DNA of 40,932 nucleotides from a virus: the UHGV virus genome UHGV-2003109. One strand, 5' to 3'. A program made the position numbers and the translations under genes. The notes beneath the pieces are model-generated. The model was not told where the DNA came from. It ran no database searches and worked only from the letters and a program-made list of their open reading frames with translations. Within the stretch, counting starts at the first letter, position 1; every line of letters starts with the position of its first letter. This document shows, piece by piece, positions 23,450 through 36,728 of the stretch.

Positions 23450-23656
23450 CTTCATTTTCACTTTTTTAAATCCAACGACAGACGGCTGGCATTTAAGTAT
23501 TGTGAAATATTATCAAATGTAATCATCATTGATTTACAAAAGATACATTTTGCCCCGAAAGGATTCATGTCAGAAACATCAAAAGATGATGTTCTATACT
23601 GGGAACCATGACAACACGGGCATCTAAAGTGAATATGGTTTGTAATATTGTCTACC

Positions 23657-23869
23657 TCAAAGCGCCACTACATGAACAGCGGCAGGACCTTTAGGTCCGT
23701 TCTCAATACCAAATTCAACTTCCTGATTCTCAGTTAATGTTTTGAAATCGTTGCTCTGAATTGCTGAGAAATGGACAAACACATCTTTGCTGCCATCTTT
23801 CGGCGTGATGAAACCAAAACCTTTTTCAGGGTTAAACCATTTCACTAAACCAGTCATTTTGTTAGACAT
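23657..23869 (-). CDS. cspI: Cold shock protein, CspI-like
   Basis: [45 protein letters not shown]... with CSD RNP motifs; ~370 nt upstream leader. Confidence 0.9.
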
Positions 23870-24238
23870 AATTATTACCTTTTGAAGAAATTAGCCCTTG
23901 GGCAGAATGGTCCGAAAAAAAATATCAGAGAGAAAAACCAACAAGGAAATCTCAAGAGGTACAAATAATAAAATTATAACAATGACTGCTTCAGATAAAT
24001 TTGTAACAAACCAGAACACCATTAACGCATGATTAACCACCCATAGCAAGGATTACTTTTGTAAAGAAAAACACAGCAATGAAAGAATAGCTTTATTTAT
24101 TAATAAAACGTGTCATTCTGATTAATGACCTTTTATCTTACCCTTAAGATTTCAGGAATTTTGACTCATGGAAGAGTCCTTTTTATTTAAATTTTACATT
24201 CAGCGATGTAAATGTTCCGATTTAATATTACCCTACAT

Positions 24239-26258: not shown

Positions 26259-26541
26259 TTGAGATTGTGGTGCTTTTTGTGGGAGTCATCCACTTACGCA
26301 CTTTGTTTTGCCATGCCAGCAGTTAGCTTCTGCTGTAAAACTATTCATGCAGCAAACCTGCACTTCACCACAATGGTTAGCATACTTTTCCTGATTAAGA
26401 TTTTGCCAAATATGCTGGCCATTGTTTCATGTATTGGACCTCCTTACTTTTTATTAAAGAGATCCAATATTCACTACTCTGTCCGTATCTCTACTCAGGC
26501 ATCAGCCTTCTTCGTTATCGTATACAGACGAGCGATGAATT

Positions 26542-26757
26542 TTAATCAGTAATGATGACATTTGCTGCTGCAGGACCTTTAGCACCACTCTCTATAGAGA
26601 AGGTAACCTTTTGACCTTCAAATAAGGTTCGATAATTATCATTCTGAATCGCAGAAAAATGCACAAACACATCTTTACTACCATCAACAGGAGAAATAAA
26701 GCCGAAACCTTTATCAGCGTTAAACCATTTTACTAAACCAGTCATTTTATTTGACAT
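26542..26757 (-). CDS. cspB: Cold shock protein, CspB-like
   Basis: [67 protein letters not shown]. Confidence 0.9.
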
Positions 26758-27057
26758 TCTACATTCCTTAACTTGAGCCTTTCGGCATAAATGGTTTGCA
26801 TAACAGAAACGACTTCGTACTTAATTGGAGAGACTCAAAGAAGGAATAAGTGAATAACACCTGAAATGAGAACTGCTTTAGTAAACTACTTCGTATATCG
26901 TCTGTTCTTCAAACCGACGCAATCATTAACGCATAGTTGAACATATGAAGCAATGTTTATTTTAGACATCCAGCCATCTTCAACCCCATCAAAAAACTAT
27001 AGCTTTCTTCAGGAACGTGTGTATAGTGCGCCAAGTTATCAGTATTAAGGAATTTTT

Positions 27058-29853: not shown

Positions 29854-30105
29854 TTATTCTCCTGAAAAAGCAGAAAAGCCAGCTTTTATTCCGATCTCTT
29901 TCAATGCCTGTAATGAAGTGACAAACTCACCTTCGCGCAAGATAAATCCGTCCGTGACCCGAGCATCCACAAAATTAATTAACGCAGCCCCATTCTTTCG
30001 CAAACACAGAATGCGGTAATGACTAACAATGTTTCCATTTTCAACGCACACAGCATAGAGGCCATCTTCACAAAAAATTTTACGCAGTTCTTCGATGTTC
30101 ATCAT
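29854..30105 (-). CDS. Hypothetical 83-aa protein, no recognisable family
   Basis: Tandem ATG start preceded by GGAAGGA RBS. Confidence 0.5.
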   Translation of the reverse strand: MMNIEELRKIFCEDGLYAVCVENGNIVSHYRILCLRKNGAALINFVDARVTDGFILREGEFVTSLQALKEIGIKAGFSAFSGE

Positions 30106-30321: not shown

Positions 30322-30477
30322 TTACTCCTCAGGTTCGTAAGCTGTGAAGACAGCGACCTCCGTCTGCCCGGTTCGGATTCGTACCTCGCAGAGGTCTTTC
30401 CTCGTTACCAGTGCCGTCACTATGACGGTTAAACAGATGACGATCAGGGCGATTAACATCGCCTTTTGCTGCTTCAT
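30322..30477 (-). CDS. hokD: Hok-family type I toxin (HokD/RelF-identical peptide)
   Basis: MKQQKAMLIALIVICLTVIVTALVTRKDLCEVRIRTGQTEVAVFTAYEPEE; AAGGAGA RBS; track ORF is an in-frame N-terminal extension. Confidence 0.9.
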   Translation of the reverse strand: MKQQKAMLIALIVICLTVIVTALVTRKDLCEVRIRTGQTEVAVFTAYEPEE

Positions 30478-30659
30478 AGCCTGCTTCTCCTTGCCTTTCG
30501 GCACGTAAGAGGCTAACCTACATGTGTCTAGCATGAAATTGGCCTCAGATTAATGTTAAGCGTCTTGCAGGACGCGTAATGTTAACTGGGGCTTTTCTCT
30601 ATCTGCCGTTGGTGTTCATGCCCGAGGCAGATAGCCTCAAGCACCCGCAGCAATTTTAC

Positions 30660-30937: not shown

Positions 30938-31969
30938 CTACCAATTGATGAAGTCAGTGATGTTATCCAACCTGGTTACAGTAACTTCCCGTCCTAACAA
31001 ATATTGCCAGTATGCCTCACGGTCATTTTGTTCACCTGCACCGCTCCACTCAATTACTCTTAAATGCTTAGAGGTTAGGTAAGGTCGAATAAGCAGGTTA
31101 AGGTGTTCATCGAGGCCAGAATAACCAAACAGTATTATTTCTTCTGATTCAAATAATGCAAACTGCAAATAATCCCAGTACGTAGAAAGAACATTAGATG
31201 CTGCTATAACTGACGGTTTCCTTTTTATATGCGTTAACACTATATGTTCGCTAGGCTCATCCCTGTCAACCGTAAGTTGAGAACGTGAAAGTTTTAAGAC
31301 GGTCTCACCCTGATTAACAAATAGTGGTGAGCCATGCAAATGCAAATAATAACCAAACCTACGATTATATTTCCGTTCGAGCGCTTCGGCGGAAAATCCG
31401 TGGCCTAACATCCCATCAACCAGATACCCATCATACCCGCTGAATATATCATTATCTATGAATGAGTTGTATAATAATTTGTCATAGTTTAATGTCGCAA
31501 TATGAGTGCGTGTATTTTTTACAAATTCCACTAGCGCATTTTCGAATCTTTGCGGCAACCCTTCACCGTAATTATGCAAACTAGTTGCAACTTTGTGGAT
31601 ATAAGTGGCGGTGATTTCGGGGAAGTTTAGTCCATCGTCAGTAAGCCAATGCTCGTTTCCTTCTCCAATTTGCGCAAGAGCCTTACAATATGTGATAGCT
31701 TGGTGAAGGGTATCCAACTCATGTTCCCCTGCCGGTGGACCTTGCCGCTGAAGACAGCGTTCGATAAGTTGCTTATGGACATCGTTTAAGAAATTGGATC
31801 GATGCCAAATTTCTGCCAACGCCCTGTCTAAGGAAAAATGAGCAGGATCTAAAGCCATACCAAGACCGTTGCCGAATATTATTAATTTTCGTGCCATATA
31901 GGAGGACTCATGTTGGAATAATCTTGAGTAGCGTAACGCGATACGCCGCAGTTTGGAAGTAATATACAT
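30938..31969 (-). CDS. SIR2-like (SIR2_2 / DHS-like NAD-binding) stand-alone protein; candidate defence NADase
   Basis: Motifs LIIFGNGLGMALD (Gly-rich N-terminus), ATLNYDKLL (conserved Asn) and YLHLHGS (conserved His), then ILFGYSGLDEH; AT-rich gene; start at 31969 or 31897. Confidence 0.65.
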   Translation of the reverse strand: MYITSKLRRIALRYSRLFQHESSYMARKLIIFGNGLGMALDPAHFSLDRALAEIWHRSNFLNDVHKQLIERCLQRQGPPAGEHELDTLHQAITYCKALAQIGEGNEHWLTDDGLNFPEITATYIHKVATSLHNYGEGLPQRFENALVEFVKNTRTHIATLNYDKLLYNSFIDNDIFSGYDGYLVDGMLGHGFSAEALERKYNRRFGYYLHLHGSPLFVNQGETVLKLSRSQLTVDRDEPSEHIVLTHIKRKPSVIAASNVLSTYWDYLQFALFESEEIILFGYSGLDEHLNLLIRPYLTSKHLRVIEWSGAGEQNDREAYWQYLLGREVTVTRLDNITDFINW

Positions 31970-33796: not shown

Positions 33797-34244
33797 TTGC
33801 TTTTTCTATAAGTTCGTCAGTTTCACGATCCACTACGGCAGGATCAGCAAAAAGCAGTCCGGACTCCACCACATCGCCATATTCTTTGTTTAACCCGGCG
33901 ATCATGTACGTGATGCTTTTTCCGTCACTAATTTCACGATACAACCTGAAATCATTAATCCGGATAGCCTCCATAATTGCAGGCACTAGCGCCGTGAACT
34001 TTTCACGCTTATCCCTGGTGTCGATAGCCTTCCAGCGTTCGAATATCTTCACTCGATTAACGCCAAGCGCTCGCTGATCAACCGCGCCACCTTCATCTGT
34101 GACACGCTGAACATCGATGTTCGGGCGCTCTTTCAAAGCCCAGAATGCTTCAGTGATTAATATCGTCGCCTGCTCCTGTGTCATTCCTGGTCGACATATC
34201 CAGGCATCCAGAGCCTCACGAGCCTGTTCAGGAGTGATTTTCAT
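33723..34244 (-). CDS. YdaT-like protein (cII position)
   Basis: 173 aa; motifs ...KIFERWKAIDTRDKREKFTALVPAIMEAI... recalled as YdaT-family; lies between the cro-like gene and the replication gene. Confidence 0.55.
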   Translation of the reverse strand: MKITPEQAREALDAWICRPGMTQEQATILITEAFWALKERPNIDVQRVTDEGGAVDQRALGVNRVKIFERWKAIDTRDKREKFTALVPAIMEAIRINDFRLYREISDGKSITYMIAGLNKEYGDVVESGLLFADPAVVDRETDELIEKAIAFKLAYRQQYQQKAGWNYEPSFC

Positions 34245-34455
34245 TGTTCAACCGCCCCGCCCGCTTCGTCTTACGATATTCGTCATAAACCTTGGGATCA
34301 TACTGAAGCTCGCCGCCAGATGCCTCCTGTAGACGCATCGCGCGACCTTCAGGAACCAGCTCTTGCCATTGAGAAACAGCAGATGGGTCAACGCCAGCAG
34401 CTTTCGCTACTTTGGCTTTCGTACCGTAAAAATTAATTACGTCTGATTTAAACAT
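34228..34455 (-). CDS. dicC: Cro-like regulator DicC (YdaS family)
   Basis: MFKSDVINFYGTKAKVAKAAGV...VPEGRAMRLQEASGGELQYDPKVYDEY; divergent from dicA. Confidence 0.8.
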   Translation of the reverse strand: MFKSDVINFYGTKAKVAKAAGVDPSAVSQWQELVPEGRAMRLQEASGGELQYDPKVYDEYRKTKRAGRLNNENHS

Positions 34456-34468
34456 CGCACCTCCAATA

Positions 34469-34482
34469 TTGAGTTTTCTCAA
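34469..34482. promoter_or_regulatory. Palindromic operator TTGAGTTTTCTCAA in the dicA-dicC divergent promoter region
   Basis: Perfect 14-bp palindrome in the 77-bp intergenic region between the dicC and dicA starts. Confidence 0.5.
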
Positions 34483-34532
34483 TGCTAATCACTCAAGGAA
34501 TCTCAAGTCAAGGGTTATTAAGATATCTAAAT

Positions 34533-34940
34533 ATGAACGAGAAAACTTTAGGTCAACGCATTAGAGAAAGACGTAAGCAGGTAGGCTTAAGTCAAAACGG
34601 TTTAAGCAAAGCTGCTGGCGTATCTGGCTCATCAATTTCATTATGGGAAAGTGACCATACAGCCCCGCGCGGGCAAAATTTGCATCGCCTCGCCGAGGTA
34701 TTGCAATGTTCACCAACCTGGATACTGTTTGGCGACGAGGACAAAACACCAGCTCCCCCTGTTTCACTCGATAGTGCCTTAGACTTATCGGAAGATGAGT
34801 TAGAGATGCTGCGTTTGTATCGCGCACTTCCTAAATCAGAGCAACAAGCACAACTCAGCGAACTCCGCGCCCGCGTTGAGAATTTTAATCGCCTGTTCAC
34901 CGAGCTATTAGAGGCTCGCAAACGCAACAAGCATCAATAA
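34533..34940 (+). CDS. dicA: XRE-family HTH repressor DicA (CI-like immunity repressor)
   Basis: …LGQRIRERRKQVGLSQNGLSKAAGVSGSSISLWESDHTAPRGQNLHRLAEVLQCSPTWILFGDEDK… closely resembles E. coli DicA. Confidence 0.9.
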   Translation: MNEKTLGQRIRERRKQVGLSQNGLSKAAGVSGSSISLWESDHTAPRGQNLHRLAEVLQCSPTWILFGDEDKTPAPPVSLDSALDLSEDELEMLRLYRALPKSEQQAQLSELRARVENFNRLFTELLEARKRNKHQ

Positions 34941-35004
34941 TCATCCCTTCACAAAATTTTAAAGCCTTACATTTCAATGTATTGGCTTTATCTTGCGCCA
35001 ATAC

Positions 35005-35060
35005 TTGAGTTTTCTCATCAAAAAACCTTGACGAAAAATAATGAGAAAACTAAATTATCT
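35005..35060 (+). promoter_or_regulatory. Candidate promoter of the ydfA-dicF-dicB operon flanked by operator half-sites
   Basis: TTGAGTTTTCTCA (35005-35018), -35 TTGACG (35028-35033), TGAGAAAACTAA (35042-35053) overlapping a TAAATT -10. Confidence 0.45.
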
Positions 35061-35132
35061 CCATCAAGACACCGCACGGTGTTCTCAGCAAACAGTTCCG
35101 CTACCCCAGCGTTAAGGGGAAATAAGGTCAGC

Positions 35133-35288
35133 ATGGATACTATCGATCTTGGCAACAACGAATCTCTGGTGTACGGCGTGTTTCCAAACCAGGACGGCAC
35201 GTTCACCGCAATGACGTATACCAAAAGCAAAACGTTTAAAACCGAAAATGGTGCCCGTCGCTGGCTGGAAAGAAACTCAGGTGAGTGA
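35133..35288 (+). CDS. ydfA: YdfA-like small protein (DUF1391)
   Basis: MDTIDLGNNESLVYGVFPNQDGTFTAMTYTKSKTFKTENGARRWLERNSGE. Confidence 0.8.
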   Translation: MDTIDLGNNESLVYGVFPNQDGTFTAMTYTKSKTFKTENGARRWLERNSGE

Positions 35289-35289
35289 T

Positions 35290-35865
35290 ATGGATTTCGA
35301 CACAATCATGGAAAAGGCTTACGAAGAATACTTCGAAGGCCTTGCCGAAGGCGAAGAAGCTCTCAGCTTCAGTGAGTTTAAACAGGCACTCAGAATAAGA
35401 ATGTGCTCTCACAATGACGCGGAGCACAAATATGAGAAGCAAAATCAGACCGCAGAAAATTTTGTTCTGGAACCCGGAGAAACGCTTTTCAAAATTCCCG
35501 TTACGTGCCCCATTTGCGGTTTTACATCAGAAGAACTTGACGACTCCTGTAACAATCAGGAAACAACCAAGTATGTCGAAGATGATACCGAGTGCGCACG
35601 AAGAACGATTATATCCACGAGTCCAAACTCCAGGACCAATAAATCTCACTTTGAGAGGGTGATTAATCCACTCCCCCAAACCAATAAAAAAGATGCCGGA
35701 GGACAAAAAACCCAATGGAACAACGGGATATCTGTCAAAAAAAGACGTTCCATTAAAGACAAACAACGCAGCGCCAACAACTGTAAGCGCTTTATACCAG
35801 TAATCAATTTTCATGTTCTTAAGCGGATTTATTGGTGGTTGCGACATTGCTTAATGAATCCTTAA
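35290..35865 (+). CDS. YdfB-like N-terminus fused to a longer hypothetical protein
   Basis: MDFDTIMEKAYEEYFEGLAEGEEALSFSEFKQALRIRMCSHN... continues to 192 aa; AGGTGAG RBS. Confidence 0.5.
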   Translation: MDFDTIMEKAYEEYFEGLAEGEEALSFSEFKQALRIRMCSHNDAEHKYEKQNQTAENFVLEPGETLFKIPVTCPICGFTSEELDDSCNNQETTKYVEDDTECARRTIISTSPNSRTNKSHFERVINPLPQTNKKDAGGQKTQWNNGISVKKRRSIKDKQRSANNCKRFIPVINFHVLKRIYWWLRHCLMNP

Positions 35866-36124
35866 AACTGTGGTGATTTTAAGGATACCACCTCGCCTGA
35901 CGTGGTTAAAAGCAGGCACACAACACGAAAGCGCACGGCGAAGTTCGTCTCACTGTACGGTGTCGTTAAATTTAATTCGACCGTGCGCTTCCGGTTGTGG
36001 CAACCCGCGAAATGGCGCGGCGGTAAGTATGGCGGGGTTATTCCTTCCCCGTTGAGGACACCGGGTTGTCAGGTTGACCATACGCTTAAGTGACAACCCC
36101 GCTGCAACGCCCTCTGTTATCAAT

Positions 36125-36180
36125 TTTCTGGTGACGTTTGGCGGTATCAGTTTTACTCCGTGACTGCTCTGCCGCCGTTT
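36125..36180 (+). ncRNA. dicF: DicF small regulatory RNA
   Basis: tttctggtgacgtttggcggtatcagttttactccgtgactgctctgccgcc followed by a T-run; matches E. coli DicF; between ydfB-like and dicB. Confidence 0.8.
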
Positions 36181-36351
36181 TTAAAGTGAATTTTGTGATG
36201 CGGTGAATGCGGCTGAGCGCACGCGGAACAGTTAAAACCAAAAACAGTGTTATGGGTGGATTCTCTGTATCCGACGTTAATTGTTAACTGGTTAACGTCA
36301 CCTGGAGGCACCAGGCACTGCATCACAAAATTCATTGTTGAGGACGCGATA

Positions 36352-36540
36352 ATGAAAACGTTATTACCAAACGTTAATACGTCTGAAGGTTGTTTTGAAA
36401 TTGGTGTCACTATCAGTAACCCAGTATTTACTGAAGATGCCATTAACAAGAGAAAACAAGAACGGGAGCTATTAAATAAAGTATGCATTCTTTCAATGCT
36501 GGCCCGTTTACGTCCGATACAAAAAGGATGCTGGCAATGA
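36352..36540 (+). CDS. dicB: Cell division inhibitor DicB
   Basis: MKTLLPNVNTSEGCFEIGVTISNPVFTEDAINKRKQERELLNKVCILSMLARLRPIQKGCWQ. Confidence 0.9.
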   Translation: MKTLLPNVNTSEGCFEIGVTISNPVFTEDAINKRKQERELLNKVCILSMLARLRPIQKGCWQ

Positions 36541-36728
36541 ATACAGCATTTGCACTTGTTCTGACAGTTTTTCTTGTTTCCGGAGAACCAGTTGATATTG
36601 CAGTCAGTGTTCACAGGACAATGCAGGAGTGTGTGACTGCAGCAACCGAACAGAAAATTCCCGGTAACTGTTACCCTGTCGATAAAGTTATTCACCAGGA
36701 TAATAACGAAATCCCGGCAGGTCTTTAA
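36537..36728 (+). CDS. ydfD: YdfD small lysis-associated membrane protein
   Basis: MNTAFALVLTVFLVSGEPVDIAVSVHRTMQECVTAATEQKIPGNCYPVDKVIHQDNNEIPAGL; ATGA overlap with dicB. Confidence 0.85.
   Translation: MNTAFALVLTVFLVSGEPVDIAVSVHRTMQECVTAATEQKIPGNCYPVDKVIHQDNNEIPAGL

Follow-up and report, generated by a model that had tools for sequence, protein, structure and literature searches.

The short intergenic regions on either side of a dicA-like repressor gene in the virus genome UHGV-2003109 contain near-identical dyads, which raises the question of which protein these sequences serve and which genes it controls through them. The DNA analyzed here is a stretch of 40,932 nucleotides of this genome, referred to below as the window. 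A sequence-only reading of it had proposed that a single repressor, DicA, acts at the repeats to govern both the immunity switch and the ydfA-dicF-dicB-ydfD module. Our analysis points to an answer along these lines: the three dyads, which we call S1, S2 and S3, together with two weaker sites, are very probably the operators of the immunity switch of a Qin-like lambdoid prophage of the mEp460 type, as far as this can be read from sequence.

The window looks like a full-length prophage, with integrase, excisionase, exonuclease, replication, Q-like antiterminator, lysis, terminase, capsid and tail functions. A rem homologue is located at 29854-30105 on the minus strand; its E. coli K-12 counterpart Rem acts as antirepressor of DicA. 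A gene for a SIR2_2-domain protein (30938-31897, minus strand; Pfam E 6.5e-6) is inserted between the genes of the replication region and hokD/sok and is likely a prophage-borne anti-phage defense moron, and the sok antisense RNA recognized by Rfam (30472-30646, minus strand) adjoins hokD. Rfam also matches two cspA-type thermoregulator 5' leaders on the minus strand (23630-24015 and 26526-26918), which belong to cspB/cspI-like cold-shock genes.

The repeats are found around two divergent regulatory genes. The Cro-like gene (34228..34455, minus strand) encodes a protein of 75 aa that matches Pfam P22_Cro (E 6e-17); the annotation of a 99.9% identical genome names it a regulator of the Cro/CI family. 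The dicA-like repressor gene (34533..34940, plus strand) encodes a protein of 135 aa with an HTH_3 N-terminal domain. The names dicC and dicA, given to these genes in the sequence-only reading, are appropriate in the sense of homology, but the genes are not those of K-12 themselves: over 127 aa the repressor shares 57% identity with K-12 DicA, and the Cro-like protein shares 71% with K-12 DicC, where all differences lie within residues 1-31 and the final 45 aligned positions are the same in both. With the repressors of the phages mEp460_ev081 and HannyBb the identity is 100%; the mEp460-type DicA has the accession WP_001003381.1. The Pfam matches of the repressor are to HTH families only, and no protease or cleavage domain (S24) was found among them. 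The dicA-like start shows no obvious Shine-Dalgarno sequence and a -10-like hexamer TAAGAT; a near-leaderless dicA mRNA, like that of lambda cI from PRM, is a speculative reading of these features.

A string search of the whole window located exact matches to TTGAGTTTTCTCA at 34469-34481 and 35005-35017. The copies reported earlier in the divergent region and on either side of a TTGACG box were recovered where they had been placed, with the strings starting at 34469, 35005 and 35042 and the box at 35028. S1, the predicted operator equivalent to Oc of K-12, spans 34469..34482 (14-mer TTGAGTTTTCTCAA) within a 20-bp frame at 34466-34485 that reads ATATTGAG TTTT CTCAATGC. The predicted operators S2 (35005..35018, TTGAGTTTTCTCAT) and S3 (35041..35054, ATGAGAAAACTAAA) lie 36 bp apart from center to center, and S3 is inverted relative to S1 and S2; its core TGAGAAAACTAA at 35042-35053 reads TTTAGTTTTCTCA on the minus strand, with one mismatch to the motif. 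None of the sites is assigned to a strand. The layout of the motif is TTGAG-TTTT-CTCAA, which had been described as a perfect palindrome. This is accurate for the 5-bp arms, which are perfectly complementary, but not for the TTTT center, which is not self-complementary. Compared with CTCAA in the full motif, one outer arm is degenerate in each of S2 (CTCAT) and S3 (CTAAA).

Two weaker candidate sites in the divergent region, at 34493-34506 and 34518-34531, had been missed in the earlier reading. The middle, Om-like site (TCAAGGAATCTCAA; no strand assigned) contains one good half-site (CTCAA), abuts the -35 of the dicCp equivalent, lies 24 bp from S1 and is partly conserved in two Buttiauxella prophages (L011 and L012). 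The proximal, Oa-like site (TTAAGATATCTAAA; likewise without a strand) is placed 25 bp from the middle one and stops 1 bp short of the dicA-like ATG; it looks like a P22-type operator, and its sequence is identical in L011, L012 and a third locus (L013), with one change in a fourth (L014). The dyads of the divergent region thus start at 34469, 34493 and 34518, with spacings of 24 and 25 bp, and the second and third are degenerate, so that the predicted arrangement of one strong and two degenerate sites is like that of a lambdoid tripartite operator. Searches at the dicB-operon promoter yielded S2 and S3 only, and no third site was found there at up to one mismatch or about 24 bp from S2 or S3; the K-12 literature speaks of three operators at dicBp (PMC10448788). 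A possible fourth copy of the motif, CGAGAAAACT in the first codons of dicA (34538-34547), was rejected for its poor dyad symmetry (2/8) and also for its lack of conservation, L011 and L012 reading ATGAATGAGATGACT at this place.

A consensus promoter scan of 34200-35300 returned exactly two promoters, equivalent to dicCp and dicBp. The dicCp equivalent (34482..34511, minus strand) is composed of a -35 TTGACT at 34511-34506, an 18-bp spacer and a -10 TAGCAT at 34487-34482; the final base of this -10 is the first base of S1, and S1 covers the start region. The AGTCAA(G) block of this promoter is kept in 8/8 aligned relatives. On the plus strand of the divergent region, the promoter scan found no consensus promoter. 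The dicBp equivalent (35028..35056, plus strand) is composed of TTGACG at 35028-35033, a 17-bp spacer and TAAATT at 35051-35056. S2 ends 9 bp upstream of its -35, and S3 overlaps the spacer and the -10.

Between the dicA-like stop codon and S2, RNA folding detected a terminator-like hairpin on the plus strand (34960..34990; -11.3 kcal/mol, z -3.6, 0/200 shuffles folding as well), followed by TTTATCTT. Although a dicA terminator was not called by a simple terminator scan, this hairpin is probably the dicA terminator, and would keep transcription that reads through dicA from reaching the dicB-operon promoter. A Klebsiella phage locus (L006) has a similar hairpin. According to the annotation of the 99.9% identical genome, the controlled operon extends over 35133..36728 on the plus strand and encodes ydfA (35133-35288; Pfam DUF1391), then a truncated ydfB, the DicF RNA (36126-36177; Rfam 72.5 bits), dicB (36352-36540) and ydfD (36537-36728), all on this strand. 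Within it, homology to K-12 ydfB/ydfC ends at 35389 and is replaced by approximately 740 bp (35390-36125), which RefSeq leaves unannotated in about 790 genomes. An ORF of 106 aa at 35527-35847 on the minus strand, antisense to the dicB operon, encodes hydrophobic membrane-like segments and has no Pfam match.

Short motifs of this kind could arise by chance or from the base composition of AT-rich promoters, for instance as A-tracts or UP-like elements, without any protein that recognizes them specifically. The motif is indeed short and AT-rich, and its relaxed forms are not enriched by count in the whole window: the 13-mer with up to two mismatches has 3 matches where 1.31 are expected, which is not significant, the 10-mer with up to one mismatch shows no enrichment, and TTRAGN4CTYAA with up to one mismatch occurs as often as expected. 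An exact 13-mer repeat somewhere in 41 kb is by itself unremarkable; it is its location that matters. An exact 13-mer common to both short intergenic regions arose in only 2/5000 shuffles, and the only four matches to relaxed TTRAGN4CTYAA in the window (34469, 34493, 34518 and 35005) all fall within the two intergenic regions. The exact pattern TGAGWWWWCT has 6 matches in the 40.9-kb window where 0.98 are expected, a number reached in 0/100 shuffles, and 5/6 of these lie inside S1-S3. The whole-window scan that had been proposed as a check favors the motif in its exact form and not by relaxed counts. The signal comes from exactness and location. As described below, the motif is also kept where its flanks have diverged, and its sequence changes in step with the recognition helix of the repressor while its position stays fixed. 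Taken together, we consider a chance origin of the repeats extremely improbable.

The operator architecture of Qin in E. coli K-12 was published in 1988 (Bejar et al., 1988, as cited in PMC10448788), and the locus in the window follows the same plan. The in vivo work on K-12 showed that Oc is occupied by DicA, that this binding is lost when one base is exchanged, and that Oc overlaps the -10 of dicC, whereas neither Om nor Oa alone was bound (PMC3441716); by analogy, the weak sites at 34493-34506 and 34518-34531 may be non-functional on their own. The gene order (Cro-like gene, dicA, ydfA..DicF-dicB-ydfD), the 135-aa repressor without cleavage domain and the rem antirepressor gene are common to Qin and the window, and K-12 DicA has been described as being without an Ala-Gly cleavage site (PMC10448788). 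K-12 Oc (TTGTTAGTCATAACTAACAA) and S1 are equally distant from the start of dicC and of the Cro-like gene, respectively, and both overlap the -10. Upstream of ydfA, the Qin dyads TGTTAGCTATAGCATACA and TGTTAGTCATGGCTAATC bracket a TTGACC box with the same 36-bp spacing as S2 and S3.

Despite this shared architecture, the DNA-binding specificity is different. The half-site is TTAGT in K-12 and TTGAG in the window, with 3/5 inner positions differing; the operator center is CATA/CATG in K-12 and TTTT in the window; the recognition helix reads SHVSVSQWER in K-12 DicA and SGSSISLWES in the window; and the N-terminus of the Cro-like protein differs as well. The operator sequence of K-12 Oc, and hence the immunity specificity of K-12, is not matched by the sites in the window. 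By these predicted operators, the window prophage is of a different immunity type within the Qin-type family. Since single-base changes abolish the binding of K-12 DicA to Oc and 3/5 inner positions differ, the window prophage is presumably heteroimmune to Qin. The K-12 Oc* mutation (A to C, giving TGAGT) resembles the motif, but relative to the dyad center the match is shifted by one position, and we do not use it as evidence. In contrast to the defective Qin, the window prophage is full-length, and its repressor is common to the functional phage mEp460. This phage (mEp460_ev081) has homologues of dicA, dicC, dicB, dicF and rem (PMC10448788), and the same three sites are present in the mEp460 intergenic regions. 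In an open-access literature search we did not find the exact operator motif in print; though the architecture has been known for Qin since 1988, the operator specificity of the mEp460 immunity type is undescribed in the open-access literature.

Alignment to K-12 Qin delimits the region in which the two prophages differ. Identity is 97-100% at 33967-34356 and at 35062-35389, and about 30-60% between these segments, defining a substitution block of 705 bp (34357..35061, no strand assigned) that holds all the sites. Within it lie the dicA-like gene with its terminator, the divergent intergenic region, the part of the Cro-like gene for the N-terminal HTH, and the core promoter of the dicB operon with its operators. 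On the left the block begins in that third of the Cro-like gene which codes for the HTH, and on the right it extends 7 bp past S3, so that it encloses the DNA-binding parts of both regulators and both operator clusters. Such an exchangeable block is the classical signature of a lambdoid 'imm' substitution. Its limits tie the motif to the DicA-like and Cro-like proteins.

The immunity block also bears on whether a different factor regulates these promoters through the repeats, such as H-NS/Cnu, Fis, IHF, or a phage protein like YdaT/CII-like. The H-NS/Cnu complex of K-12 interferes with DicA in the region of the dicA promoter (PMC3441716), and a gene of the YdaT family adjoins the Cro-like gene. 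However, a host protein would not need a motif that changes with the immunity type of the phage, and the geometry of the dyads is that of a site for a HTH dimer of the C2/434 type. Over 33967-34244 the ydaT-like gene, which is not part of the block, is near-identical to the Qin DNA, yet the operators differ. Regulation by such a factor is, in our view, very unlikely.

Conservation was assessed in a scan based on DicA alignment with one genome per species, which gave 28 loci, to which six phage loci were added. In the Buttiauxella prophages (L011 and L012), with DicA proteins 74-76% identical to that of the window, all three positions retain the motif amid diverged flanking sequence: (A/C)TGAGTTTTCTCAAT recurs both between the divergent genes and ahead of the -35, and TTGAGAAAACTAA over the -10. 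In the dicA-ydfA spacer, S2 and S3 are 25/28 identical to the Buttiauxella sequences, compared to 47-48/93 for the rest (p about 1e-4), and in Citrobacter and Superficieibacter the corresponding figures are 21-22/28 and 28-29/93. The TGAGTTTT columns of S2 are invariant in 7/7 aligned relatives. S1 is identical or nearly so in both Buttiauxella loci; its conservation does not significantly exceed that of the rest of the divergent region (p 0.06-0.2), because this whole region, 79% identical to Buttiauxella, is densely functional. The immunity type is found in approximately 800 of 5,426 complete E. coli genomes. Two contigs from metagenome-assembled genomes labeled 'Bacillota bacterium' (L009) and 'Veillonella parvula' (L010) carry a 100% identical dicA locus of the E. 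coli type, and are almost certainly mis-binned E. coli prophage DNA.

The sequence of the sites covaries with that of the repressor. TTGAG is present on both sides of dicA in 8/8 loci with the helix ISLWES and in 0/24 loci with other helices (32 loci); the eight include near-identical copies and represent about five independent lineages. Helices of the type ...SQWE(R/S/T) pair with TTAG(A/G/T) dyads and those of the type ...(F/Y)KWEN with dyads of the ACTTA type, at unchanged positions. The helix of the Cro-like protein tracks the operator type as well, with (D/E)(P/R)SAVSQW in the TTGAG group versus RLAS..(S/A)W in the TTAG group, which suggests that the DicC homologue probably uses the same sites.

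The latter covariation, and the location of the HTH-coding part of the Cro-like gene inside the immunity block, could be taken to mean that the sites serve the Cro-like protein only, with the DicA-like protein acting elsewhere or indirectly. The DicA helix covaries equally well, though, and lambdoid switches share operators between both proteins. Moreover, Oc of K-12 is bound by DicA (PMC3441716), and dicBp of K-12 is derepressed by deletion of dicA (22-fold) and not by deletion of dicC (PMC10448788). We regard exclusive use by the Cro-like protein as highly improbable and favor operators that are read by the DicA-like repressor and probably by the Cro-like protein too. Thus, the earlier proposal of one repressor for the immunity switch and the ydfA-dicF-dicB-ydfD module is supported by position, conservation, covariation and the immunity block, but the word 'one' is incomplete, as the Cro-like helix covaries too.

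A structural parallel is the repressor of phage P22. Residues 1-68 of the DicA-like protein align without gaps to the N-terminal five-helix HTH domain of P22 C2 (1adr, 2r1j; phmmer E 8e-16 to 4e-15). As in the window, the P22 immC region has a partner protein in Pfam P22_Cro and a dyad operator with a 4-bp A/T center, with three sites about 24 bp apart between divergent genes. In contrast to DicA, with its short unrelated C-terminal part, C2 has a C-terminal LexA-like cleavage domain. The half-site consensus of the P22 operator is TTTAAG, compared to TTGAG in the window. At C2 positions 32, 33 and 37, which we take to be the base-contacting residues in C2, the residues are N, V and Q in C2, G, S and L in the window and H, V and Q in K-12 DicA. 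In the 18-bp P22 dyad the outer bases are contacted and the central 4 bp are not, and the repressor binds an A-tract center with the highest affinity (KD 4.3 nM versus 14.4 and 57.6 nM for other centers) (PMC4267663). A T4/A4 center is found in S1, S2, S3 and most relatives, and by analogy this is consistent with P22-like indirect readout.

The regulatory plan also resembles that of phage lambda, where the repressor silences the divergent PR and PL promoters via repeated dyads and Cro antagonizes it at the same sites. Both systems have two early promoters with repeated dyads and an exchangeable cassette that ends just outside OL and in or next to cro. They differ in that there is no homology between the operator sequences, two sites are detected at the PL-like promoter of the window, and there is no RecA-dependent cleavage.

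From these features a working model for the switch can be proposed. A dimer of the DicA-like repressor (135 aa, with a P22 C2-like N-terminal domain) would read the two TTGAG half-sites, leaving the 4-bp A-tract between them uncontacted. Bound at S1, the dimer would cover the -10 and the start of the Cro-like promoter, which would turn off the replication genes along with the Cro-like and ydaT-like genes; on the model of K-12, DicA at S1 might in addition stimulate transcription from the weak dicA promoter. Dimers at S2 and S3 would flank the -35 and cover the spacer and the -10 of the PL-like promoter, keeping ydfA-DicF-dicB-ydfD silent. The Cro-like protein would compete at the same operators with the opposite outcome, resulting in a bistable switch. 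Because DicA is without a cleavage domain, induction would not proceed via RecA-mediated cleavage, and could instead depend on the Rem antirepressor or on repressor instability. Binding, the relative affinities of the sites, autoactivation of dicA and the use of the sites by the Cro-like protein are predicted here from sequence.

A more elaborate arrangement can be envisaged as well. The T4/A4 centers are opposed in S2 and S3, the spacing of these sites is fixed at 35-36 bp, and the S1 cluster is about 540 bp away, which might suggest a looped higher-order DicA complex formed via the C-terminal half of the protein, either around the dicBp -35 or between the OR-like and OL-like clusters. The covariation of L37/S40 with G-5/A-4 would then be an engineerable specificity code. 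We consider this looped complex unlikely. If it did hold, the natural specificity code could provide orthogonal repressor-operator pairs.

For the Qin-like prophages in general, the assignment of S1-S3 and the weaker sites as operators of the immunity switch has several implications. The dicB/DicF operon encodes potent inhibitors of cell division together with phage-exclusion functions, and knowledge of the operators would predict which promoters are silenced by a resident DicA variant and how superinfecting mEp460-type phages are excluded. Likewise, the operator that is read by a given DicA would predict cross-repression, that is homo- or heteroimmunity, among Qin-like prophages in one genome. 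Work on the DicA/Rem switch has until now been confined to a defective prophage; as a common type that is present on a functional phage, the switch described here could provide a tractable model of it in a live phage.
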